64,000 bases of DNA from a virus. The notes under the pieces are model-generated. The model was not told the DNA's origin. It saw only the letters and a program-made list of their open reading frames with translations, and made no database searches. The position numbers and the translations under genes were made by a program. Of the stretch, positions 4,078 to 46,992 are shown one piece after another. Numbering within the stretch: the stretch's first letter is position 1; each line of letters begins with the position of its first letter. Where the stretch lies: positions 1 to 64,000 of the IMG/VR virus record IMGVR_UViG_3300033141_005269. One strand, 5' to 3'.

Positions 4078-4869
4078 ATGAGTGTAGCGAAAAGAGCCTG
4101 GTTACCAGAAGAAATTCAGTTATTGAAGTCAGAGTATGCCACTAACTCGCTTGATGAACTCTGTAAAGTAATAGGTCGTCATAGCCGAAGAGCGATACGA
4201 CAAAAAGCTTATACACTAAACTTAAGAAAACATCCTTGGAAATACGAAGTGAATCATAACTTTTTTGAAGAATGGAATGAAGAGATGGCTTATATCTTAG
4301 GCTTTTTCTGCGCCGATGGTTGTCTGAAAGATAGAAACAGGATTAATTTTTCGAATTGCGAATATGAAATAATTCGTCTTATAAAATTGGCTTTACAAGC
4401 TGAAAATCCGATTTATGAATTCAATCGAGAAAATAGAAAAACACTTTATGTTTTGGAATTTACTTCTAAGAAAATTAAAGAAAAACTCGAAGAGATTGGA
4501 TTGACTGAAAAGAAATCCTCTACTCTCAAATTTCCAAAAGTTCCAATTGATTATTTGAAAGATTTTATTCGTGGATTTTTTGATGGCGATGGGGGACTTC
4601 ACATTTCGAAACGAAACAATCAACTAATTATTTACTTTGCTTCTGGCTCGGAAGCGTTTATAAAGAGCTTGGAAAAGAAATTACGTTGCAAACTCAAATT
4701 GAGAGAAAAGAAAATAAACTTTCGAGGAGGAGTTTATAGATTGAGGTATTATTCAAACGAAGCGAAAACAATTCTATCTTGGTTATATGAAGGCGCTTCA
4801 TTATTCATGAAATCGAAATACGAAAAGTTTATGGTCCTATCGGACATAAGAAGAAACAAAGGAGGTTAA
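4078..4869 (+). CDS. Free-standing two-motif LAGLIDADG homing endonuclease
   Basis: YILGFFCADG and FIRGFFDGDG motifs. Confidence 0.9.
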   Translation: MSVAKRAWLPEEIQLLKSEYATNSLDELCKVIGRHSRRAIRQKAYTLNLRKHPWKYEVNHNFFEEWNEEMAYILGFFCADGCLKDRNRINFSNCEYEIIRLIKLALQAENPIYEFNRENRKTLYVLEFTSKKIKEKLEEIGLTEKKSSTLKFPKVPIDYLKDFIRGFFDGDGGLHISKRNNQLIIYFASGSEAFIKSLEKKLRCKLKLREKKINFRGGVYRLRYYSNEAKTILSWLYEGASLFMKSKYEKFMVLSDIRRNKGG

Positions 4870-4904: not shown

Positions 4905-5304
4905 ATGAGTGTTGCCAAATGAGCTTTGAGGAAACCTCAAGCTCTGGTTAAGAGCTTGGGAAGGCCATATCAAGAAAGACGGATCGGAAATCGGTTTCGC
5001 GGAAGGAAGTATAACTATAGATCGTGGACTGCAAACGTTTTATGAACTCGGAAATTATGATCTGGCGGCTAGACGAGAAACAGCTCGCGAAATAACAGGA
5101 ACAATTGATCATGGGTTTATAGATCCCACGCTGTTTGGTACTTTAGCTACGGGAAATAACATGACAACTTTCCAAATCGAAATGAGTACTGCTGACGGGC
5201 GCTTTACCCTGAGCGGATGTACAATCGAAAGCTACGACTTCGATATTCCAACTGATGGTTGGATAACTGAAAGCATAGATTTCAGAGCTAAGGGATTTGG
5301 ATGA
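4905..5304 (+). CDS. Tail tube-like protein 1, spliced join(4905..4919,4951..5304), 122 aa
   Basis: GAGGTG SD before ATG 4905. Spliced product is MSVAK|RAWEGHIKKDG. Its C-terminus FTLSGCTIESYDFDIPTDGWITESIDFRAKG parallels the next gene (FKFSGCYIESLDQDNAADDWSTFSVDLRALG). Confidence 0.8.
4920..4950 (+). other. 31-nt BHB intron in the tail tube gene
   Basis: GCCA/UGGU central helix, bulges AAU and UAA, intron hairpin GAGCUU(U)GAGG-AAA-CCUCAAGCUC. Removal deletes an in-frame TGA and fixes the frame. Confidence 0.85.
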
Positions 5305-5315
5305 GGTGATTAGAA

Positions 5316-5726
5316 ATGAGCGTGCAGACTGGAAAAGATGTAGAGGTTTATTATCATAATGGAGCTTTCGCTGATTTGTTTGCGTCTGGAACACTGATTG
5401 GATTAGCTGAAACTGCGACTTGGAGCATGGATGAAGGACTCGAAGAATATCATGGCGCTGGTAAGCGATTACCATGGGGTATTGCACCTGGTCCAAAAAG
5501 TGTAACCTTAACACTCGAAGGATTATGGGTTGAGAGCGGAGCACAGAAATTTTTCATGGACGAAATAGTGAAAAGCGGAGCAACAAATCAATTCCATGTT
5601 GGAATAAGTGGTTTAGATCGCGCCTTTAAGTTCAGTGGTTGTTATATCGAGAGCTTGGATCAAGACAATGCAGCAGATGATTGGTCAACTTTCAGTGTGG
5701 ACTTACGTGCACTTGGGATAAGCTAG
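5316..5726 (+). CDS. Tail tube-like protein 2
   Basis: Beta-rich, 136 aa, immediately before the chaperone and tape measure genes. Confidence 0.7.
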   Translation: MSVQTGKDVEVYYHNGAFADLFASGTLIGLAETATWSMDEGLEEYHGAGKRLPWGIAPGPKSVTLTLEGLWVESGAQKFFMDEIVKSGATNQFHVGISGLDRAFKFSGCYIESLDQDNAADDWSTFSVDLRALGIS

Positions 5727-15822: not shown

Positions 15823-16137
15823 TTGGTGTGCAGAGTGGCAAGTAAAAAGACATCGAATAATGAAATATACCGTGTATTACTTGACCACAGCGATAGACTC
15901 GGAAGGATTGAAGGCGAAGTCACGAAGATCAATGAATTGAAAGAAACAATTGAAAAGAATTTTAAGGATTTGAAAAAAGATCTGGGGAACCTCGAAACTA
16001 AAGTCCAGGAGAACTCGAATGATATCATAAAGATTAAGCAGACCGCGAGAACGATAACAAAAGTTGGAGGAATCAGTGGCGGAATTATATCATTTGCTTA
16101 TTTTGTCTTTCAACTGCTTGCTAGTATTGGTAAGTAA
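15823..16137 (+). CDS. Coiled-coil protein with a C-terminal TM helix
   Basis: Heptad pattern followed by GGISGGIISFAYFVFQLL. Confidence 0.5.
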   Translation: MVCRVASKKTSNNEIYRVLLDHSDRLGRIEGEVTKINELKETIEKNFKDLKKDLGNLETKVQENSNDIIKIKQTARTITKVGGISGGIISFAYFVFQLLASIGK

Positions 16138-16785
16138 AACTTCTCGAATATGTTGCAATGCCTTTTTACCGAGACCCTTTATCGAAATGTTTTGCTGATT
16201 AACTGCCTCGAAGAAAGCTTCCGGTGAACCATATTCCGAAAGAATAACTTCTGATATCTTCGCGCCAATGCCCGGTAAACCTTGTAGTAAATATTTTTGC
16301 TTATCACACAAACTCATGCTTTTAGCCGGACTGGTTCGAAGAGTGAATGGGTTTTTAATCCCGCCAGCTCGACGAGCAAGCGAGGCAAGAAAACTTACCG
16401 TCCATGAGCGAGAGGGTAGAACTATAATTGGAACCTTCCAACCATATAAAATACTCGAGATTGCACCGGTTATTGAATTGATATCGACTTTAATCCACTT
16501 ACGTGGATATGCAAGCGAACCTTCAATTAGAATTACTGGACTTGCTTCTGTTTCCTTCATACGTTTAAGCTGATCAAAAATTCGATTTTGGAAAATTGAA
16601 CTCATAAAATCGGTTGGAGTTTTTCGTTCAATTATGAAAGATGTCTTCTCATCACCCCCAAAAATTAGGAAGTCCCCAGTTGGAAGTTTCTGAATGTCCA
16701 CTTGAAGTCCTTTCGAAGCGAGTTTATCGCGAAAGTATTTTTTATGATGCTCGCGAGAATCGATTATTATATCCAAACTAATCAC
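16090..16785 (-). CDS. ERCC4/XPF-family nuclease with HhH domain
   Basis: IDSRE, GDF, ERKT..D, LPGIG, IKGLG. Confidence 0.92.
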   Translation of the reverse strand: MISLDIIIDSREHHKKYFRDKLASKGLQVDIQKLPTGDFLIFGGDEKTSFIIERKTPTDFMSSIFQNRIFDQLKRMKETEASPVILIEGSLAYPRKWIKVDINSITGAISSILYGWKVPIIVLPSRSWTVSFLASLARRAGGIKNPFTLRTSPAKSMSLCDKQKYLLQGLPGIGAKISEVILSEYGSPEAFFEAVNQQNISIKGLGKKALQHIREVLLTNTSKQLKDKISK

Positions 16786-21458: not shown

Positions 21459-22313
21459 TTAAGTATTACTATCTAGAGATTTCGATGGTTTTAACAAAGA
21501 AATTGGAGTTTCAAGGTAAATTCGATACATGTTTCGCGGAACTGCAAAGTTATGCTCCCTAGCCTCGATAGTTAAATGCTTCGCGACAACTGGCATGGCT
21601 ATTCGTTTATTGTCCCAATTATCCTCGCCAACTTCATCAAAAGCGTGCTGTAGAGCGCGAATTATGCGATCGTGAGGCATTTCTGGGAGCTGAACTTTCG
21701 GTGGCTTCTTAACTTTGGGGAGTTTTGGTAAATCAACTTTTTCTTTGAAGAAGACCTGATTTTTATAATCCTTTCCGACTACTCCTTCCCGTCTGTGTCG
21801 TCTGCACCACTTAAGCGCTTGTTCAATATGCTCGAAAAGATCATCTGTGGAAGCGGGAATAAATCTGTCTACAACTCGAACAATCGGTAAGCGATGATGA
21901 AAGGCTTTTTGATAAATGATATTATATCCAAGAAAACGTTCTGTTTGACAGTCCCAAATATCGAATAATATCCAATGAATATGTTTGCGCTTGGGCTCGA
22001 TCCTGGTAGGCGAAATGCGCTTAAGTAACTCGCCGAATAGGATGTAATCGTTACCATAAATTTGCTCGTCGCGAAGAAGCTCAACTGCTTTCGAAAATTC
22101 AGGAGTTGATTTAAGGCGAGTTTGGATATCATTTGATGCTTGTTCTAGATTGCGGCTTGAGATCCTAACTACTCCGGAGTCATCAAGCCAGATTGAAACG
22201 TTTTCGCCGTCTCGTTTTTCAGTTAGATGAAGAAGCTGACCAATTAATTCGCGACCTTGATTTCGCAAACGGCGAATCGGTTCCAAATCATAATATTTTC
22301 TCCATCGAGTCAT
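21459..22313 (-). CDS. ATP-dependent RNA ligase family protein
   Basis: TEKRDGEN motif I, LFGE, LFDI, EGVV, FKEK. Confidence 0.8.
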   Translation of the reverse strand: MTRWRKYYDLEPIRRLRNQGRELIGQLLHLTEKRDGENVSIWLDDSGVVRISSRNLEQASNDIQTRLKSTPEFSKAVELLRDEQIYGNDYILFGELLKRISPTRIEPKRKHIHWILFDIWDCQTERFLGYNIIYQKAFHHRLPIVRVVDRFIPASTDDLFEHIEQALKWCRRHRREGVVGKDYKNQVFFKEKVDLPKLPKVKKPPKVQLPEMPHDRIIRALQHAFDEVGEDNWDNKRIAMPVVAKHLTIEAREHNFAVPRNMYRIYLETPISLLKPSKSLDSNT

Positions 22314-32128: not shown

Positions 32129-34847
32129 CTAGAACTCAAAAACATCTTCTGGTTTTACTTTAGGAAATCCGTGAGTTGTAATCGCGAATGCTGCGGCAGT
32201 ATCAAGCTTGGCCATATCTGCTTGGCTAATCCATCTCCCATGTTTGCCTAATTTAGACATTATTTCCTTCGCCTCATCTAGGGTTATGTCATCTATGACT
32301 AAATAACCTTTCATTCGATATTTCCTCCAAAACTATGGACTTTTTCCTTCGGCTTGAAACAAGACTTCGAAAATTGCTTTGGCAACTTCGAGCCTAGTTC
32401 TTCTTTTCCGATTAGCTTTTATTTTAACCTCCTCCGTAAATAGCAATCCCGCCGACAGAGTCTATGACTTCGGGTTTTCGCTTAACCGCGGAAACAAATT
32501 CCTCGAAAGTGCTTCTTCTAAGCGGACAACTATAATCGCAGATTTCCCAAGCCAATGTTTCCCATTCGAGTTCCCCTGTTTTCGCCTTTGTATAAATAAA
32601 TTTTAATGCCTCCTCATAGCTTTCTGCATGGACGACAGCTACGCCGCAGGTATAATCGCACAAAACATTTTTCCAAACAAACATTTTCATTTTGCTAAGT
32701 CCTCTCCGGGTTCACGGCTGCTCGAAGGCGCGGTATTTATTTGATTGCCGAGATAATTGCTGTCCCCTTCCAGCGCCCCGCATCTCCTTCCGAGCAATTG
32801 CCGACCCAGCGGACGCAATTTTTAAAGCCTTTTCAAGTTCAACCTCTATACCTTCCGCATAAACTCCAAGAATTTGAGCGTCCTTGAATTGCCTAAAGTG
32901 GGATAAAACCATCTCCAGATATCCCCGAAGTTTTTCAAGACGATTTTTACAATCCTCTAATTCATCAGCGTATTTAACATCATTTCTTGTTAAATCGGAA
33001 ATATAATCTCTTAATTCCTGGACTTCTTTCTGCGCATCCTCGAGTCGAACCCACTTCTGGTCCAACAGCGGATTATGCACTCCATCTACAGTTTTTGCCC
33101 ATGCTTCTTTCCATAACGCGTAAACTTCTTCGTAAGACTTCGCTTTGTTTTTCAAACTCATCGAGAAACCTCCTTAGCTAATGCCTCGAAAAGTTCTTCA
33201 TGCTTCGCGATATCTTTGCGCAACCAAGCCTCGAGAAACTTTTGCTGAAAGTGAATAAGCAAGCTTTTAATTCGGATCATCCAAATCAACCAGCTGATAA
33301 TCATAACCGAGAATAGCCGTTTCGAGACCAGAAAGAAAGCAACCAAATCGATCGCGAAAATCAAAATGTTCTATCGTCCATCGCTTAGTGTCCGGGTTAT
33401 AATTTGGAATGTAAGTTTGAGCAAGCCAGCTTATCGCGCCTTTTAAATACAATAATCTTTCGAGTATGGAAAGCCTGCGTTTAACAAATTTCAAATTAAT
33501 CTTCCTCCAAGTGATCCCATGGAAACTTCCAACCATGCCGTCGCTTTTCATGCATAAGCAAGCTATGAGCTGCCATGCCGAGTATGAATGAACAAATGCA
33601 CGAAACAATGAAGTTCACAAAATCGATCACTGATTATTCCCCCAAAATGAATAGCGAATTATTCGCTTATATTTGCACTATCTGTTTTGAAAGCTTCCAG
33701 GAGTGCAGGAGACATCCGGACGAAATATCGATTCGGTTTATGATCTTCAAGGTGTACTCGAGAACCATGCTTGCGCGCGAAATTACGAATTTCAGTATAT
33801 TCCGACTTCGTCATCCGAACTACTACTTCTCCGCGTTTATATTTATAAACTTCCAACTTACAACCTCCAAAATAAGGGAAAGATTTTTCGTATATAAACT
33901 ATTCTTCCCTAAGTATTACTTTCAAATTACCTGACAACGGAAGCTTATTTAGTCTCATATAATCACTATTAAGAATAGTTGCTTCAATCGAAAGTCTAGT
34001 CTCCATTGGATCGAATGAAACACTGAGTTCGCGAACAGTTGCCTTAAGATAGATTTTCTTTCCTTTCAGTGCATCAGCTAGCTCCTCAATTTCAATTTCG
34101 TCCAATTATTGCACTTCCCCTTCATCTGGATTAAGTCCAAGCTCCATATCAATTAGAAGAGCGATTTCGAAGGTTAACTTCATCAACCGTCTAAAATCAT
34201 CCCAAGTCCACAGCTTGTTAAGATGCCCGTGGCCAATACCTATTCCCAAATCCTTAAGCTCATTAACTTTTCTTTCGAGTTCTGAGCCTTTTAAACGCTC
34301 TGGAACTTCAATTTCCAAAAGATGATCAGATGCTCTGCTTGCCCAGCTTTCGATTAGCCTTGAAGACTCCCTCGAATTCGAAAGCGATGTTTTGAGAACT
34401 GTCGGGTCCATAAAATGCATTGCAAACTTGACCAAGCAAATAACTAGCCCGCGCCCATATTCTGACGGTGGAATATTTTTAATTGCATCTGCAAGTCGTT
34501 TAGCTTCGAGTGACAAGAATAAACCTCCAAAACTTTGCGAAGGCGAAGTTGTTGATAGGCTTCAGAAGCCGGTAGTTTGTAAGGTTTGCGGAAATCGAGT
34601 AAGACTAAAAATAAAGTAATGAAGATTAGAAGAACTGGCAATATTAATCCCAGCTTTATTCAATTTTTCGCCAGGAAAGCCAAGAATTGAACATCGCGAC
34701 TATTTTTTCATCTTCCCAAATTTTAAGTCTAGACTCCTCATCAACCGTGACCTTACTTATGTTTTCGAAAATTTCTTTGAATAATCTGTCTAGAGCACCC
34801 TCGACAAATACAGCAACTTTCAACCGAAAACACCTCCAAAACGGAGT

Positions 34848-40746: not shown

Positions 40747-42946
40747 TTAATTTTCGTTATTGATTTCAACTTTGACGTAAACCCATCCTTGAGGCATTGG
40801 GTCTGGTCGTTGACCAGTTGAAACTAATACCGCGACAGAAGCCTTACTAGCAACATCTGAAAGTAATTGTTGAGTTTCCTCGTTATCCCAATCATAGATG
40901 TAAAAATCCGAGAAAATCACTACAATGTCCTTTGAACGCATTAAATTAATAACTCGACGTAGAACCGGAGCGACTTCAGTACCTCCGCCGCCACGAATAT
41001 GCGAAATTACCTTCTCGATTACGTCTTGTTGAGTTCGCCCTTCAATTGTTTCGTAAGCCGAAGAATCCCAGCAGATAACCGTAAATTCACATTTCCTCGC
41101 GATAGAATAAAGCTCTGTCATAGCTTGCGTGATTTCCGTATCAGACATCGAGCCACTCATATCTGGCAAGAAGAACACCTTGGGAATTGTATACCTGATT
41201 ATCCCTGGCAACGCTGGATGCTTGCGAGATGCTCGCCGATAACTTGAAACAACGGTTTTCCCAAGCCCAGTCATTATCGCTTGTCGAAGAATTGTTTCCC
41301 AGCTTACTTTCGAGTGTAGCATGCGGTCAATAACTCGTTTAAGTCCAGCTGGAACAGTACCCGCTAACTTCTGCGTGGAATAAGCTCGAATAACCCGGTC
41401 TCGCCATTTCTGCTCGAGGTCGTCTTCGGAGTTTTCTTGATTGTAAATTTCGGGGTCGCCTTCCTGCAAGACTTTGCCTTCGAGGTTATCATCGCCTTTG
41501 AGGTCATGAGTTAATCCATCTTCAATTTCATCGATTGGAATTTCAATCCCTTGTCCACCAGAACCTTTTTCGAACTGAACTTGTGAAGTCCACTCATGAC
41601 CACAAGAATCACATTTGAATTTAGCTTCGCCGTATTTAACTGAAAACTTCTTGATTCGAATTTGTTTGCTGCCACAAGCCGGGCATTTTGGAGCTCCGCC
41701 TGAAGGCATAGAAATTTTTGGGATTAAATCGTAAATTTCCTCTTTGCTCATTTTAGCTAAATCCTCTTCGTTATACTGAAACTTTTTGAAGAAATCATAG
41801 AACGCATTGAAAAACCGACGAATTGTCCAAGTCAGTCCGCTGAGCTGATATGGCGTTCGCAAGAAATCATCAATCATATCGTTGTTTAAAGAGTTTTGAC
41901 TCGCATATATCGCCATATTTTCTTATTATTTCTTTTCCTAAACTAAATTGGAATTCTGGATTTCGTTCTTGCCCCTGTTTATGCAGTTCCTTAAGAGCCC
42001 AGAAAATCCATTTAATTTCATCGGTTTCCCATGTCAAATTTCTAAGACGCTGTTTGCCTCGAATTTGAATCAAACGGTAAACTAGAAGGGCTTGAGGTTT
42101 TTTGATTATAAGAAAAGGAATTATTTGTTCTAAAATTGATTTTGAGCGAAACCAACTGACACATTCAAAGTTTAAATATAGATCTACTCCTTTGCCACGC
42201 TTTCTTCTTATTTTTCTGATTTTGAAACCAAATTTTCTTGAGATTTCTTTTCCAAAAAGGCTACTTTGTGTTATTCTAATTACAGGATGAGGGTATCGCT
42301 TGCCATTGACATTACTAAAGGTGATGGAAATCGTTCCATCTCCATCTATTAGTCCAGCTAAATAAGCTCTTTCGGTTTCTGAAAAGAGTTTTTCCTTGTC
42401 GATCCACCGTTTTTTCCAAATGTCTTCCATTGTCAATCTTCCGCTTAAACCTTTTCTATCAAGGAAACCTTTCAAAGTTGTCCAACGACAACCTAATTGT
42501 TTTGCAATATCATCTAATTTCATTACTCGATAATTTTCAAGAACGAATTTCTCCCGCTCGGGAGTCCAGAAAACCCGCTTTGATTTCATCTTATATCAAG
42601 AAATTATTACATAAATTCCCTAATAAGCCTTTCCTTTTGGCGACATAATGCGATCTGTCACAAGATTCCACATGAAATGATTTCGATGACCTGCTCGTTT
42701 GGCATCTCGGAAAGCAATATGCATTGTCTCATGTGCGAGAAGCCATGCTTTAGCATCAGATTGCAGATTAGCCCAGAATTTGGGATTAATTGCCATGATA
42801 TCGTTTCGAGTTACTCCAGCAGTAGGCACATCTTCGCTTAAGATTATGCGAACCCGGCGAAGTAAGCTTGAGATGAATGGAGCCACGACTGTTAAGGCTG
42901 AGCTAAACTCATCATAATCCTTTTTAATTCGCTCGAATAAATCCAA
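40747..42946 (-). CDS. HExxH metallopeptidase-like + VWA protein (DUF2201-like), spliced complement(join(40747..41894,42655..42946)), about 479 aa
   Basis: LAHETMH; junction WNLVT-D-SLNND; MIDAS DMSGSM, GGGGT, FSD; adjacent to the AAA gene. Confidence 0.85.
41870..42589 (-). CDS. Intron-encoded LAGLIDADG endonuclease with N-terminal HTH; linear stop lies in the downstream exon
   Basis: YLAGLIDGDG; IIPFLIIKKPQA. Confidence 0.9.
   Translation of the reverse strand: MKSKRVFWTPEREKFVLENYRVMKLDDIAKQLGCRWTTLKGFLDRKGLSGRLTMEDIWKKRWIDKEKLFSETERAYLAGLIDGDGTISITFSNVNGKRYPHPVIRITQSSLFGKEISRKFGFKIRKIRRKRGKGVDLYLNFECVSWFRSKSILEQIIPFLIIKKPQALLVYRLIQIRGKQRLRNLTWETDEIKWIFWALKELHKQGQERNPEFQFSLGKEIIRKYGDICESKLFKQRYD
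41895..42654 (-). other. 760-nt BHB intron in the VWA gene
   Basis: UGAC/GUCA central helix, bulges AGA and AAA, about 15-bp intron helix. Confidence 0.9.
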
Positions 42947-42972
42947 AAACGAATCCTCCAAAAAATTAAGGA

Positions 42973-45900
42973 TTAAGCTGCAATCGCATCTTTTAATCCA
43001 ATCGCTATTTTGCTGAGTGTTTTGCGATAATGAGGTTGGTGGAGTATCAACTGTTGAAGAAGTTTTATTAATTTCTGTCTTTTCATCGAAGTGCAAGTTA
43101 TGACCAGAAATTCAGTTCGCATGGAAGACATTACATCGATGAGCGGAAAAGCTTTCTTCATATCCTTCGCTTTGCTGAGCCAACTCGCGAGCATAATCGC
43201 ACTCATGTATTGAGCATCGAACGCCAAGTTACGAAAGCTTTCTGGTTTCTTGATTAATTCGTTTATGTTGACTTGAGTTTTCATGAACGCTTGAAATTTG
43301 GCTCCAACTTCTTGCCCAACATATCCTTTTATATCATCTGGTGAATCAAAGCCTTCTTTCAATTCGAGAGCGAGCCAAGACCATGTTATGCCGGAAGCTT
43401 ATAACTTCTCTCGGCACGGGATATGGGTCAAGTGTCTCGCGTCTTCTCGGTGGCATCATTAGATAATTTTCGTCCTGAAATGCTATTTCCCGGCTATAAA
43501 TGGTTTTCCCTTCTTTTTTGGCATTCATTCAAAAGTTTGAGAGCAACACCCTTTTTGATTTTAAGAAATGGAATTATCGACTCAAGAAAAATTATAATAT
43601 CGGTCATACGTTGAATTCGCCAGTTCCAACAAATGCCATATTTTCCATGTTTAGAACCATAAATGAATCCGCCGACCTTATCTTTCAGCCAAAGCATGAT
43701 TTCCTTATTTTTATTTGCAATTCCTAAATGGTGTTGATAGCCCTTTATTTTGTCGAAATGACAATAACCTTCTCCATCAAAAAGACCAGCAATATAGAGG
43801 AGATCATCTTTGGGCGGAATTTTGATTGTTTGTTCGAATAGTTTCGGTTTTCTAGTCTTTAGTCCAATACTTTCCAAATATTCAGAAATTATCTTTCGAT
43901 CGCGATGAAGAAATTTAGTAATTTGTCTTATCGTGAATCCTTTTGAATATAGTTTTCTAGCTTGCTCTTTTTCGGCATCTGAGAATTTTTTTCTTCGCCT
44001 TTTAATTTGATCCTCAAACTTCTTTAATACGCGAATTACAGTTGTAACCGCGCAACCAGATCTTTTAGCGATTTCCTCTAACGAAAGACCCTTTCTATAA
44101 AGTCTAAGGATCGATTGATTACGCCTCGAAATTTCTGATCTTTTCTCTTTGGAAAGTTTCGGACTTCTTCTCATTTCATTTGGTAGAGTTTTCAAAATTC
44201 GCGAAAGAGTAGAATGACCGATACCATATTTAGAAAGAATCTTTTTCCATTTAATTCCATTGATGTAATCGGAAACTATTGCTTTTCGGGTGTCCTCAGA
44301 TAACTTCATTATTGCCACAATAATAAAAGAGGGAAAACTCACTTATAAACCTGTAGGAAAGCATATGTTCGCTTGTCCCAAGCATCGCCATATTTCTCAT
44401 CCATCCACTTCCGCCAGTCATCTCAGCGGTTATAAGGAAAAGCCCACATATTCTTCTATTTCATTTATGACCATGGAAACTTTATCGCGTTTAATAACCA
44501 GATAAGGAAGAATTAGCTTCAAGATTTTGCCTACTTCAAGAAGAGGGTATTTCGCCCAAGCATAAACATTCTTTTTGGAGGTATATCCCGCTATTTGCTT
44601 GCCCTTTGGATCGGAAATTGTTATTCCGCCACCAAATCTACTTACTAGCCAAGACATGATATCTTTTGATGTATTATAAACAGAGAGTCTGACTTCTAAA
44701 GTTTCTTTTTTCCAACGTTTCCGTCGTTGAGTTACTAACGAACCCTCGCCATCGAATAAACCTGCAAAGTAAATTAAATCTTTTTCTGGAATATTATTCC
44801 TCATCACTGGATGTTTGAATCGATGGCGGGTTATTCCATGCTTTTCAAGAATATATAAAATCGTAGTGTTCGAGACTCCAAGTTGACGCGCAACCTCTTT
44901 GGCATTATGGCAAGCTAAATAAAGGCGAATTACTTCCTCTTCATTAAGTTTAGATTTAAATTTTTTCGCTCGGAGTTTCCATGACATCTATTTCAACCAT
45001 AAGAAAGTAGTGGGCGGTAACTTATAACCTTTACTGTTGGTGGTTGGATGCGAATGATTTTAAATCGCGAGGCTAACGGGGCAGAAATTAAATGTGCAAT
45101 GCTGGAATGTTCAGGGGCATTGCCCGCTGCGATAACCATAGTTCCAGAACTGAATTGAACAAAGCCCGCTAGATGGTCAAGAATTACTGGATAGCTAGCA
45201 GCTTCGACATCGGGCCTATTAATTTGTGTGAATTCGTCCGCGAATAGTATTCCAGAAGTGCATGAATGCAACACAGCCCAAGCGATTCGCCGGAAGGCTA
45301 AACCTCAGCCAAATTTTCTATTATAATACTCGACTAGGATAGGATACTTTTCTTCAAGAAATCTTATTACTTTTTCCGCTTGCTTTCGCTTTACGATTAG
45401 ATATGGCAAAACCGATTTTAGAATGATGTAAGCCTTGAACCGATCATAAGTTTGCCAATGATAAACTATTTCTTGATGGAAAGAATAAGGCTTTGAGGCG
45501 TAATAATTAGATCCAAATTTCTTCTTCAGCCATTCAGCTAACTCTTTCGAGGTATTTGCAACTCGCACGCCTATTCGCCTTTGATAATCCCGTCCCTTCC
45601 ATTTATCGAATTTGATATTGCCATCAGCATCAAGCATACCCGCAAAATAAATTAAGGAATCTTTGTCTGGTAACTCGAAATTTTTAATAAACGGTCTTCT
45701 CGTCTTCGGCTTAATCAAGCCAAGTCTAATTGCTGTCATCCTTACACAAGCGGAAGAACATCCTATAATCTCTGCAATTTGTTTATAAGTTAAATTCGAA
45801 GTAATTAAGAACTCCTTGATTTTGTTTACTTTGAACTTATCTAGTCGGTTCATAATAGGAAATATAGCCTCATGGGATTTAAACCCTCCTGTGGCTCGTA

Positions 45901-46239
45901 GAATGAAGTATGATTATGGCTTCTGGGAATGCCTATCAAATCCTCTGGGGCAATTGTTGATAAGCGGATATCAGTTAGCACGAAGTAATTATCTGGCGCG
46001 TTCAATATTTCGAAGAACTCTTTTTCTCCATCGTGAGAAATCACGAACTTGCCTTGTTTCCAACGCAATCGCATGCATATGAACTTCTTGCCGAGTTTTT
46101 GTGCGATTTGTTCCGCGGCTTCATAAACCGAAATTGATTTCCCGATTCCTGGCGCACCTAGTACGAGCAAAGCTCGTCGCCTTGCTACTTCACTGAAATA
46201 TCTTCTGACTATATAATTCCGAAGCTCGGAAATCCTCAT
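42973..46239 (-). CDS. MoxR-like AAA+ ATPase in five exons (45891..46239, 45031..45285, 44353..44421, 43410..43485, 42973..43387), 387 aa
   Basis: GAPGIGKS, DLIGIP, ILFADEF, AAGN, LASRF, PVPRTW; exons sum to 1164 nt = 388 codons. Confidence 0.9.
43388..43409 (-). other. 22-nt BHB intron 4 of the AAA gene
   Basis: GCCG/CGGC helix, bulges AGA and AUA, hairpin GAAGUU-AUA-AGCUUC. Confidence 0.88.
43486..44352 (-). other. 867-nt BHB intron 3 of the AAA gene
   Basis: UCCU/GGGA helix, bulges ACA and AAU, long intron stem; junction AFL-L-AFQ. Confidence 0.85.
43494..44318 (-). CDS. Intron-encoded LAGLIDADG endonuclease with tandem N-terminal HTH repeats (start GTG 44318 or ATG 44309)
   Basis: YIAGLFDGEG; three HTH-like segments. 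Confidence 0.88.
   Translation of the reverse strand: MAIMKLSEDTRKAIVSDYINGIKWKKILSKYGIGHSTLSRILKTLPNEMRRSPKLSKEKRSEISRRNQSILRLYRKGLSLEEIAKRSGCAVTTVIRVLKKFEDQIKRRRKKFSDAEKEQARKLYSKGFTIRQITKFLHRDRKIISEYLESIGLKTRKPKLFEQTIKIPPKDDLLYIAGLFDGEGYCHFDKIKGYQHHLGIANKNKEIMLWLKDKVGGFIYGSKHGKYGICWNWRIQRMTDIIIFLESIIPFLKIKKGVALKLLNECQKRRENHL
44422..45030 (-). other. 609-nt BHB intron 2 of the AAA gene
   Basis: CAGU/GCUG helix, bulges AAA and AGA, perfect GGUUAUAAG/CUUAUAACC stem; junction PPTV-N-DW. Confidence 0.9.
44430..44987 (-). CDS. Intron-encoded HTH-LAGLIDADG endonuclease
   Basis: YFAGLFDGEG; ILPYLVIKR. Confidence 0.9.
   Translation of the reverse strand: MSWKLRAKKFKSKLNEEEVIRLYLACHNAKEVARQLGVSNTTILYILEKHGITRHRFKHPVMRNNIPEKDLIYFAGLFDGEGSLVTQRRKRWKKETLEVRLSVYNTSKDIMSWLVSRFGGGITISDPKGKQIAGYTSKKNVYAWAKYPLLEVGKILKLILPYLVIKRDKVSMVINEIEEYVGFSL
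45286..45890 (-). other. 605-nt relaxed BHB intron 1 of the AAA gene
   Basis: AGCC/GGCG helix with one A-G mismatch, bulges ACA and AAU, GGAGGG/CCUUCC stem; junction YEP-L-AW. Confidence 0.8.
45305..45853 (-). CDS. Intron-encoded HTH-LAGLIDADG endonuclease
   Basis: YFAGMLDADG; VLPYLIVKRKQA. Confidence 0.9.
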   Translation of the reverse strand: MNRLDKFKVNKIKEFLITSNLTYKQIAEIIGCSSACVRMTAIRLGLIKPKTRRPFIKNFELPDKDSLIYFAGMLDADGNIKFDKWKGRDYQRRIGVRVANTSKELAEWLKKKFGSNYYASKPYSFHQEIVYHWQTYDRFKAYIILKSVLPYLIVKRKQAEKVIRFLEEKYPILVEYYNRKFG

Positions 46240-46263
46240 GTTAATCCTCCAAAAATTCGAGAG

Positions 46264-46992
46264 TTACTTCAAGGCTTTACTCAATCGATACGGCGCAACC
46301 ACATCTTCCATTTGTTGGATTATTGCGTTATTATGCTCGCGAATATCTTTTACTTGCTGGTCAGCTAATTTGAAAAGCTCAACTAACTCATCGATAAACT
46401 GAGAAGCAAAATGAATATCGCTGTAATAGTTAATATGAAAGCTTTTCGAGAAGCTTCGATTGGAATAAATCTCTATTCTTGATGGTGTATTTGTTTCGAG
46501 TTTAATTGCAGAAACTTCGAGAGGAGTTAGTCTGAATGAACGAGAAAGAGAATAATCGAAAACCTTCTTTACTTCTGGTAGTTTATAAATTACTTCATTA
46601 TCAGATGGTCGTTTTATCTGCTTTGTAAGCTTCACTAACTTATCGAAGTCTTCCATAATGCTTTTGCGAAGATGTGGAAGAATCTGGTCTCCGTACTTGA
46701 TGATAAATTCGATGAAATCGGTGTAAAGATTTCTTCCATAAGTATACCAGCTGGTCTTAGCTCGGAACCAAGTACCAATTGCCAGACGAGTAGGACGCCA
46801 ACCTTCATCGAGCTCAATTTGAGTTACTGTATATTTTCTGCGAAGCGGTTTAAGTGATTCAAACGCAAATTTAGTTCGCGAATAAATCATGTTTTCAAGT
46901 AAGCGAGTGTTAACCTTTTCTGCAGTTTCGAGTATGAAAACGAGTTTTGGTTTAATTTCCCGAAGATGTTGAATTATCATGAAAACCTCCAA
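46264..46992 (-). CDS. Hypothetical protein (start likely ATG 46980)
   Basis: Long ORF immediately upstream of the AAA gene. Confidence 0.65.
   Translation of the reverse strand: MEVFMIIQHLREIKPKLVFILETAEKVNTRLLENMIYSRTKFAFESLKPLRRKYTVTQIELDEGWRPTRLAIGTWFRAKTSWYTYGRNLYTDFIEFIIKYGDQILPHLRKSIMEDFDKLVKLTKQIKRPSDNEVIYKLPEVKKVFDYSLSRSFRLTPLEVSAIKLETNTPSRIEIYSNRSFSKSFHINYYSDIHFASQFIDELVELFKLADQQVKDIREHNNAIIQQMEDVVAPYRLSKALK

Follow-up and report, generated by a model that had tools for sequence, protein, structure and literature searches.

Predicted bulge-helix-bulge introns, most carrying homing endonuclease genes, in an AAA+ ATPase gene of a tailed, probably archaeal virus

Introduction

How could a protein be made from a gene whose conserved motifs are scattered over a string of short reading frames? 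The question is raised by the first 64 kb (64,000 nucleotides, nt; hereafter the window) of the 77,415-bp virus record IMGVR_UViG_3300033141_005269, in which nine open reading frame (ORF) pieces lie on the minus strand between positions 46239 and 42973. The initial annotation of this locus had read the pieces as the exons and introns of one viral, MoxR-like AAA+ ATPase gene, split by four introns with the bulge-helix-bulge (BHB) boundaries of tRNA introns, three of which carry homing endonucleases. Based on an alignment to uninterrupted homologs, the register of the BHB motif at each boundary and the ribozyme-free content of the inserted segments, we consider it likely, with a probability of roughly 0.85, that a tailed archaeal virus carries a functional AAA+ ATPase gene interrupted by host-spliced BHB introns. 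All four introns proposed in the ATPase gene are supported by this evidence, and the adjoining partner gene appears to contain a fifth.

Results

Exons of the ATPase gene and alignment of the predicted product

The gene can be assembled from five exons on the minus strand. Exon 1 (45891..46239, 349 nt) opens with an ATG at 46239, has GGAGG 6 nt upstream and encodes the Walker A motif GAPGIGKS, and exon 2 (45031..45285, 255 nt) encodes Walker B (ILFADEF) and the sensor-1 residues AAGN. These are followed by two short exons, exon 3 (44353..44421, 69 nt) and exon 4 (43410..43485, 76 nt), and by exon 5 (42973..43387), which is 415 nt long including the stop. On recomputation the coordinates and lengths given in the initial annotation proved exact: 349+255+69+76+415 nt sum to 1164 nt, i.e., 387 codons plus a stop (388 in all), with zero internal stops. 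The in-frame joins that it had predicted, YEP-L-AW, PPTV-N-DW, AFL-L-AF and PVP-R-TW, were likewise reproduced, in phases 1, 1, 1 and 2.

Exon 1, used as a query for longer proteins, recovered two relatives without an interruption, P0002 (389 aa) and P0003 (385 aa), and a metagenome scan added three loci, L091, L092 and L093. Exon 1 is 68-72% identical to P0001, P0002 and L091. The most informative of these is L091, a 39.6-kb contig on which a single open 388-codon gene encodes an ATPase with 62% identity to the window protein and on which the order of genes (upstream ORF, ATPase, VWA partner, next ORF) is the same as in the window. All of the intron sites are empty in L091, the ATPase and partner genes both being uninterrupted, and the ATPase gene of L092 is uninterrupted as well. 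Alignment of the predicted product with intronless homologs had been set beforehand as a check, with missing or surplus residues at the joins as the refuting outcome. The spliced 387-aa product aligns to P0002, P0003, L091, L092, spliced L093 and P0001 without gaps or additional residues at the four joins, and most of the aligned homologs share the identical join sequences YEPLAWA and YPVPRTW. A full HMMER search returned 3935 matches to the ATPase family, mainly uninterrupted proteins of 370-410 aa, with a minority of fragment ORFs that have recurring breaks.

The assignment to the MoxR group is tentative. In Pfam, the intact homologs match PF00004 only, with scores of 21.7-23.1 bits (cut-off 21.2), which is a borderline, generic AAA match. 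Phage relatives with 25% identity carry the annotation MoxR family ATPase, and a gene with DUF2201_N and VWA domains, the usual partner of MoxR, lies directly downstream both here and in L091, L099, L001 and L098. Together with the Walker A and B motifs, the VWA/DUF2201 partner and the phage annotations suggest a MoxR-like ATPase.

BHB motifs at the predicted intron boundaries

At each predicted boundary pair in the ATPase gene, the last four exon nucleotides ahead of a 3-nt bulge pair with four intron nucleotides ahead of a second 3-nt bulge, forming a central 4-bp helix (H) between two bulges on opposite strands. The intron ends adjoining the bulges pair in an inner helix (h'). Intron 1 (45286..45890, minus strand as are those that follow, 605 nt) has H AGCC/GGCG, consisting of 3 bp and an A.G mismatch, bulges ACA/AAU and h' GGAGGGUU/AGCCUUCC. 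In intron 2 (44422..45030, 609 nt), H is CAGU/GCUG, the bulges are AAA/AGA and h' is a perfect 9-bp helix, GGUUAUAAG/CUUAUAACC. Intron 3 (43486..44352, 867 nt) has H UCCU/GGGA, bulges ACA/AAU, an h' stem that is long but interrupted, and an outer helix of 5 bp between the exons (AUGCU/AGCAU). Intron 4 (43388..43409) is 22 nt long and contains no ORF; its H is perfect (GCCG/CGGC), its bulges are AGA/AUA, and its h' (GAAG/CUUC) is closed by the loop UUAUAAG. It breaks the frame within the Arg codon of PVPRTW, a motif that the homologs read without interruption. The four central helices, including the single mismatch, were thus found as the initial annotation had described them. Helix h', which that annotation had not listed, measures 8, 9, 4 and 4-6 bp in introns 1 to 4, respectively, and in introns 2 and 3 it continues as a long, interrupted stem. 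Pairing of the intron ends would enclose the endonuclease ORF in a loop.

The same arrangement recurs in the partner gene, which encodes a DUF2201_N metallopeptidase and VWA protein on the minus strand. Its exon 1 (42655..42946), with a probable TTG start at 42946 after GGAGG, encodes the sequence HETMH, and its exon 2 (40747..41894) encodes the remainder of DUF2201_N, a Zn ribbon and VWA/MIDAS. Between them lies a fifth predicted intron (41895..42654, 760 nt) with H UGAC/GUCA, bulges AGA/AAA and h' UCGCAU/AUGCGA, reaching ~15 bp. The join, WNLVT-D-SLNND, is gap-free with respect to L091.

Two 3-nt bulges on opposite strands of a 4-bp helix are therefore present in 5/5 introns, intron 1 having one A.G mismatch, and an in-silico cut past bulge nucleotide 2 on both sides gives the join defined by homology. 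Among the flanking helices, h' is present in all five introns (4 to ~15 bp), and the outer helix h is clear in intron 3 alone (5 bp), the others having the relaxed HBh' form. To place this agreement in context, a background scan of 2.4e8 position pairs in the genome gave a frequency of 8.8e-4 per pair meeting the BHB criteria; the pair required by homology is a BHB at each of the five introns. When frame-keeping candidates within +-12 nt were considered, the required pair was the sole or best one at four of the five sites. The BHB register at the homology-defined sites thus exceeds chance. Folding of short constructs gave a more graded picture. The BHB-constrained fold is the minimum free energy (MFE) structure for intron 2 and the partner-gene intron and lies 0.8, 1.4 and 3.1 kcal/mol above it for introns 3, 4 and 1, respectively; the MFE z-score of intron 1 was not significant. 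Nucleotide conservation near the junctions is above the gene average at site 1 alone and was not used as evidence.

We also compared eight independent introns, namely the five described above, one in L093 and two small ones elsewhere in the window (4920-4950 and 32713-32797), the last three of which are described below. The central helix is paired at 31/32 positions over these introns, with a different sequence at each site: the 4-mers of exon and intron in effect covary.

A decaying gene would be another reading of the locus: a dead ATPase gene into which free-standing homing endonuclease genes have been inserted, with BHB-like pairings that are incidental. An apparently free-standing LAGLIDADG gene does occur in this genome (4078-4869). 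Several pieces of evidence nevertheless make the dead-gene reading highly improbable: (i) The 387 codons are open and conserved once exactly the BHB-defined segments are removed. (ii) All five insertions have the motif in exact register. (iii) The 22-nt insert is ORF-less and yet has a perfect BHB. (iv) The partner gene repeats the pattern.

Endonuclease ORFs within the predicted introns

The large introns of the ATPase gene are filled over nearly their whole length by ORFs that are not in frame with the exons and that begin and end at start and stop codons of their own. The ORF in intron 1 (45853-45305, minus strand as are the next three) encodes 182 aa with a helix-turn-helix (HTH) region and one LAGLIDADG motif (LDADG), and that in intron 2 (44987-44430) encodes 185 aa. 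The ORF in intron 3 begins at ATG 44309 or GTG 44342 and ends at 43494, encoding ~270 aa with repeated HTH domains and a LAGLIDADG motif. A fourth ORF starts at 42589 in the partner-gene intron and has the motif LIDGDG. Each of the four combines an N-terminal HTH region with a single LAGLIDADG helix in which the acidic residue is intact (LDADG, FDGEG, FDGEG and IDGDG). Taken singly, the ORFs fall below the cut-off of Pfam LAGLIDADG_3. A profile built from the four matched these four ORFs alone in the whole genome and, in the PDB, matched the single-domain, homodimeric enzymes I-MsoI and I-CreI with E values of 5e-12 to 1e-9. The ORFs are thus assigned to the single-domain, I-CreI-type LAGLIDADG family as predicted homing endonucleases, and the proposal that three of the ATPase introns carry LAGLIDADG homing endonuclease ORFs is borne out.

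The stop of the ORF in the partner-gene intron depends on the form of the RNA. On the linear pre-mRNA the frame enters the exon and reaches a stop at 41870, giving 239 aa; on a circular intron it runs for 252 codons plus a stop (759 of 760 nt) and ends one base ahead of its own ATG. Flanking BHB motifs were also sought at 79 viral loci whose endonuclease homologs are distant (~30%); the 23 matches were no more than those of a shifted-window control (62), and no claim is based on them.

These ORFs bear on two alternatives to BHB splicing. First, the three large insertions could be self-splicing group I or group II introns and the 22-nt insert something else, given that group I introns with endonucleases are frequent in phage genes and are present in archaea as well (PMC6125680). 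A permissive Rfam scan (evalue mode) of positions 41500-46500, however, found no group I or group II intron. The nucleotides outside the endonuclease ORF in the three large introns (37+19, 43+8 and 10 to 43+8, i.e., 8 to 43 per side) are too few for a ribozyme core, and the BHB register is common to all five insertions, small and large. We regard self-splicing introns as scarcely credible here. Second, the protein might be produced with no RNA splicing at all, either from separately translated fragments that assemble into a split ATPase or through inteins that are excised from the protein. Both split AAA+ genes and inteins of the LAGLIDADG kind are known in archaea and their viruses. A split protein is at odds with exons 3 and 4, which amount to 23 and 25 codons without start codons, and with splits that fall within codons. 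Inteins are at odds with endonuclease ORFs that are out of frame and have starts and stops of their own, and no Hint or intein domain was found by Pfam in the intron ORFs. This second alternative, too, deserves next to no weight, and host-spliced BHB introns remain our preferred reading.

Near the 5' end of all four ATPase introns there is an A/T palindrome (UUUAAAU, GUUAUAAG or UUUAUAAG), at 45878-45884, 45021-45028, 44342-44350 and 43399-43405 on the minus strand. It lies 27-37 nt ahead of the endonuclease start codons and resembles an archaeal TATA box. The palindrome may serve independent transcription of the endonucleases, or it may merely be part of the stem.

Probable small BHB introns elsewhere in the genome

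Beyond the ATPase and partner genes, the 77-kb genome appears to contain at least two small BHB introns, both without an ORF, one of them in a tail-like gene and one at the 3' end of a gene. At 4920-4950 (plus strand), a 31-nt segment with a strong hairpin, central helix GCCA/UGGU and bulges AAU and UAA follows codon 5 of an ORF that otherwise has no start. Its removal joins MSVAK to that ORF, and the 122-aa product, MSVAK|RAWEGH..., is a paralog of the product of the next gene, 5316-5726 (28% identity, E 5e-11). At 32713-32797 (minus strand), an 85-nt segment shows a textbook hBHBh' with central helix CGGC/GCCG, bulges AAU and UGA and a 6-bp outer helix. With this segment removed, the C-terminus of the ORF becomes ...SAKPGEDLAK and its stop overlaps the next ATG. 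Generic genome-wide BHB scans with ORF-joining rules were too noisy to call introns without homology, the partner-gene intron being their sole outcome.

The apparently free-standing LAGLIDADG gene mentioned above (4078-4869, plus strand, 263 aa, two LAGLIDADG_3 matches) lies just upstream of the intron at 4920-4950. It opens with MSVAKRAW, the same eight residues as the spliced product of the neighboring intron gene.

Variation of insertions among relatives

Insertions in relatives of the ATPase gene differ in presence and position. L093 contains a 35-nt canonical BHB intron at 969-1003 (central helix CACC/GGUG, bulges AAA and AGA, perfect 11-bp h') whose excision gives SHQ|SMSF; relative to site 1, it lies 8 codons upstream. 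P0001, at 95% identity to the protein of L091, diverges from it after AFLK, which is site 3. Site 4 (PVPR|TW) forms the C-terminal end of the fragments P0143, P0114 and P0102 and the start of P0127. Two of these four belong to clusters with members on 17-25 kb contigs, so that the site-4 breaks are not contig ends. We infer that the breaks of such fragment ORFs in databases may be BHB introns. Empty or differently placed introns among relatives are as expected for mobile elements, which these predicted introns resemble in this respect. A scan of viral contigs with P0002, P0143, P0102 and P0033 found no relatives.

A further kind of split was seen at Walker B. In the P0145/P0033 and P0183/P0090/P0191 lineages the ATPase is called as two ORFs divided at this motif, on >10 contigs of up to 36 kb, and in one of these lineages a full-length allele, P0191, shares a 90% cluster with the split alleles.

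The pattern among relatives helps to judge another possibility, namely that the main role of the BHB introns is regulatory, as a switch that makes the MoxR-VWA module dependent on the splicing capacity of the host, and that they are not active mobile elements, with endonucleases that have been domesticated or are inactive. The introns are clustered in one two-gene module, and the small introns in the tail-like gene and at a 3' gene end carry no endonuclease, as such a switch might lead one to expect. The four endonuclease ORFs, by contrast, are intact and keep the catalytic motif residues, and the presence of insertions differs among relatives at 90-95% protein identity, which fits recent mobility. 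A mainly regulatory role is thus very doubtful, and mobile, host-spliced introns fit these observations better.

The virus and its host

With genes for a tape-measure protein, a portal and the large terminase, the record represents a tailed virus. It has a 114-bp direct terminal repeat, notwithstanding which CheckV estimates its completeness at 65%. Neither EndA, the archaeal splicing endonuclease, nor the ligase RtcB was found in a search of the proteins of the virus record. There is an ORF of the ATP-dependent RNA ligase family (PF09414, E 1e-14) at 21459-22313 (minus strand), for which any link to exon or intron ligation or to RNA repair is speculative.

The host is probably an archaeon, because of the BHB introns themselves, an XPF-type nuclease, the large terminase (TerL) clusters and the occurrence of ATPase relatives on archaeal contigs. 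The nuclease (16090-16785, minus strand, 231 aa) combines ERCC4 and helix-hairpin-helix domains in a short form that is characteristic of archaea. In a protein atlas, the nearest TerL clusters are mainly archaeal, with Bathyarchaeota as the commonest label, which serves as a lead only. ATPase relatives occur on contigs of metagenome-assembled genomes of Thermoproteota and Sulfolobales, and those genomes have two EndA paralogs. Within the Archaea, Thermoproteota or Bathyarchaeia are the probable group, as a lead only.

Discussion

Proposed mechanism

Taken together, the data are consistent with the following sequence of events, in which the EndA and RtcB steps are drawn from the established biology of archaeal tRNA and rRNA introns. 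The host endonuclease EndA would cut both boundaries of each intron, and the host ligase RtcB would join the exons and circularize the introns. According to the literature, two-subunit EndA of the crenarchaeal type accepts the relaxed HBh' form of the motif. The mostly relaxed form seen here, with a good H and h' and a weak outer exon helix, would point to a host whose EndA has two subunits and broad specificity, as in Thermoproteota. At the DNA level, the three I-CreI-like LAGLIDADG and HTH proteins encoded in the ATPase gene would cut intron-less alleles of co-infecting relatives, and recombination repair would copy the intron into the cut allele (homing). The 22-nt intron 4 could then be an ORF-less remnant that retains the GUUAUAAG element found in the large introns. 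This intron system would also have entered the partner gene, and smaller BHB introns would have come to lie in other genes of the genome. A virus with a mobile intron system that depends on its host, as the initial annotation had envisaged, agrees with the lack of EndA and RtcB among the viral proteins searched and with the empty or shifted sites in relatives, splicing itself being predicted.

Some observations weigh against this interpretation. The central helix of intron 1 contains a mismatch, and its BHB fold is the one farthest above the MFE structure (3.1 kcal/mol). In four of the five introns the outer helix between the exons is weak or missing, and an EndA of strict specificity would therefore leave these introns uncut. 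The spliced junctions and circular introns are predictions. With a completeness of 65%, a viral splicing enzyme could conceivably lie on DNA outside the record.

A broader claim can be made at lower confidence. On balance we favor the view that this virus and a wider group of tailed viruses, of the kind that infects Thermoproteota or Bathyarchaeia-like hosts, harbor active mobile BHB introns that home between viral genomes through their I-CreI-like endonucleases and rely entirely on the tRNA-splicing machinery of the host. Correct expression of four or more viral genes, among them the ATPase, its VWA partner and the tail-like gene, would then be possible only after protein-catalyzed splicing of their mRNAs. 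On this broader view, the viruses would be the first natural system to show introns that need neither ribozyme nor spliceosome spreading and decaying within protein-coding genes.

Relation to known introns

The closest precedents for BHB introns in mRNA are cellular. A BHB intron is known from the cbf5 pre-mRNA of Crenarchaeota (Watanabe 2002; Yokobori 2009, PMC2738675), and another from the 5' untranslated region (UTR) of Haloferax HVO_1309, at the time of which report, in 2020, cbf5 was the sole other mRNA BHB intron reported (PMC7714728). In both cases, as proposed here, a tRNA-type BHB intron lies in an mRNA and is removed by the EndA and ligase of the cell. With cbf5 and HVO_1309 our locus also shares an intron within the codon of a conserved residue, such that splicing is needed for function. 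Those introns, however, are single, short, ORF-less and located in cellular genes, whereas here there are four in one viral gene and a fifth in its partner, four of the five with endonuclease genes.

LAGLIDADG-bearing BHB introns are known from archaeal rRNA genes, including those of I-DmoI and I-PorI, that of the homodimeric I-Vdi141I (PDB 3e54) and the 16S introns of Thermoproteales (PMC4496867). They resemble the introns described here in having a BHB boundary and a long stem around the endonuclease ORF, in the circular intron RNA expected and in homing at the DNA level, which we propose for the present case. The rRNA introns target rRNA, in contrast to the protein-coding viral genes of this locus. 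The endonucleases also differ, those found here being single-motif proteins of the I-CreI/I-MsoI kind with an N-terminal HTH, for which the match to I-Vdi141I (3e54) is weak (E 1e-3).

Among viruses, the nearest analogs are the endonuclease-bearing group I introns in phage genes such as td, nrdB and sunY of T4 (reviewed in PMC3984707). They, too, are selfish introns placed in conserved motifs, several per genome, that spread between co-infecting genomes, as we suggest for the present introns. The T4 introns self-splice as ribozymes, whereas those described here have no ribozyme and would need a protein enzyme of the host; they would therefore be limited to hosts that possess EndA.

By the account given in PMC2738675, Peng et al. 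described putative, unproven 12-bp 'introns' in genes of a rudivirus (SIRV), the sole earlier suggestion that we found of archaeal-type introns in viral protein genes. As described there, those inserts keep the frame, with neither splicing nor a BHB demonstrated; here the frames are broken and the junctions are defined by homologs. For BHB introns in mRNAs or viral protein genes, the searchable full-text literature yielded only cbf5, the HVO_1309 5' UTR and these rudivirus inserts, and in the same literature no viral case with multiple introns was found, in line with what the initial annotation had stated. What appears to be new here is the presence of several introns per gene, of full-size, intact endonuclease ORFs within a viral coding gene, of a remnant beside them and of variable sites in relatives.

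Implications

The features of endonuclease-bearing BHB introns and those of mRNA BHB introns come together here in four predicted introns of one viral protein gene; the partner gene adds a fifth, and smaller ones lie elsewhere in the genome. One consequence is practical. Gene callers fragment genes of this type, and many public fragment ORFs of the ATPase family break at the same motifs. If splicing takes place as proposed, protein-spliced introns can colonize coding sequence as freely as the group I introns of phages do. Expression of viral genes would be tied to a housekeeping enzyme of the host, which could set host range and possibly timing. The side-by-side occurrence of full-size introns, a remnant and empty sites would offer a compact test system for the spread and decay of introns that rely on neither a ribozyme nor a spliceosome.

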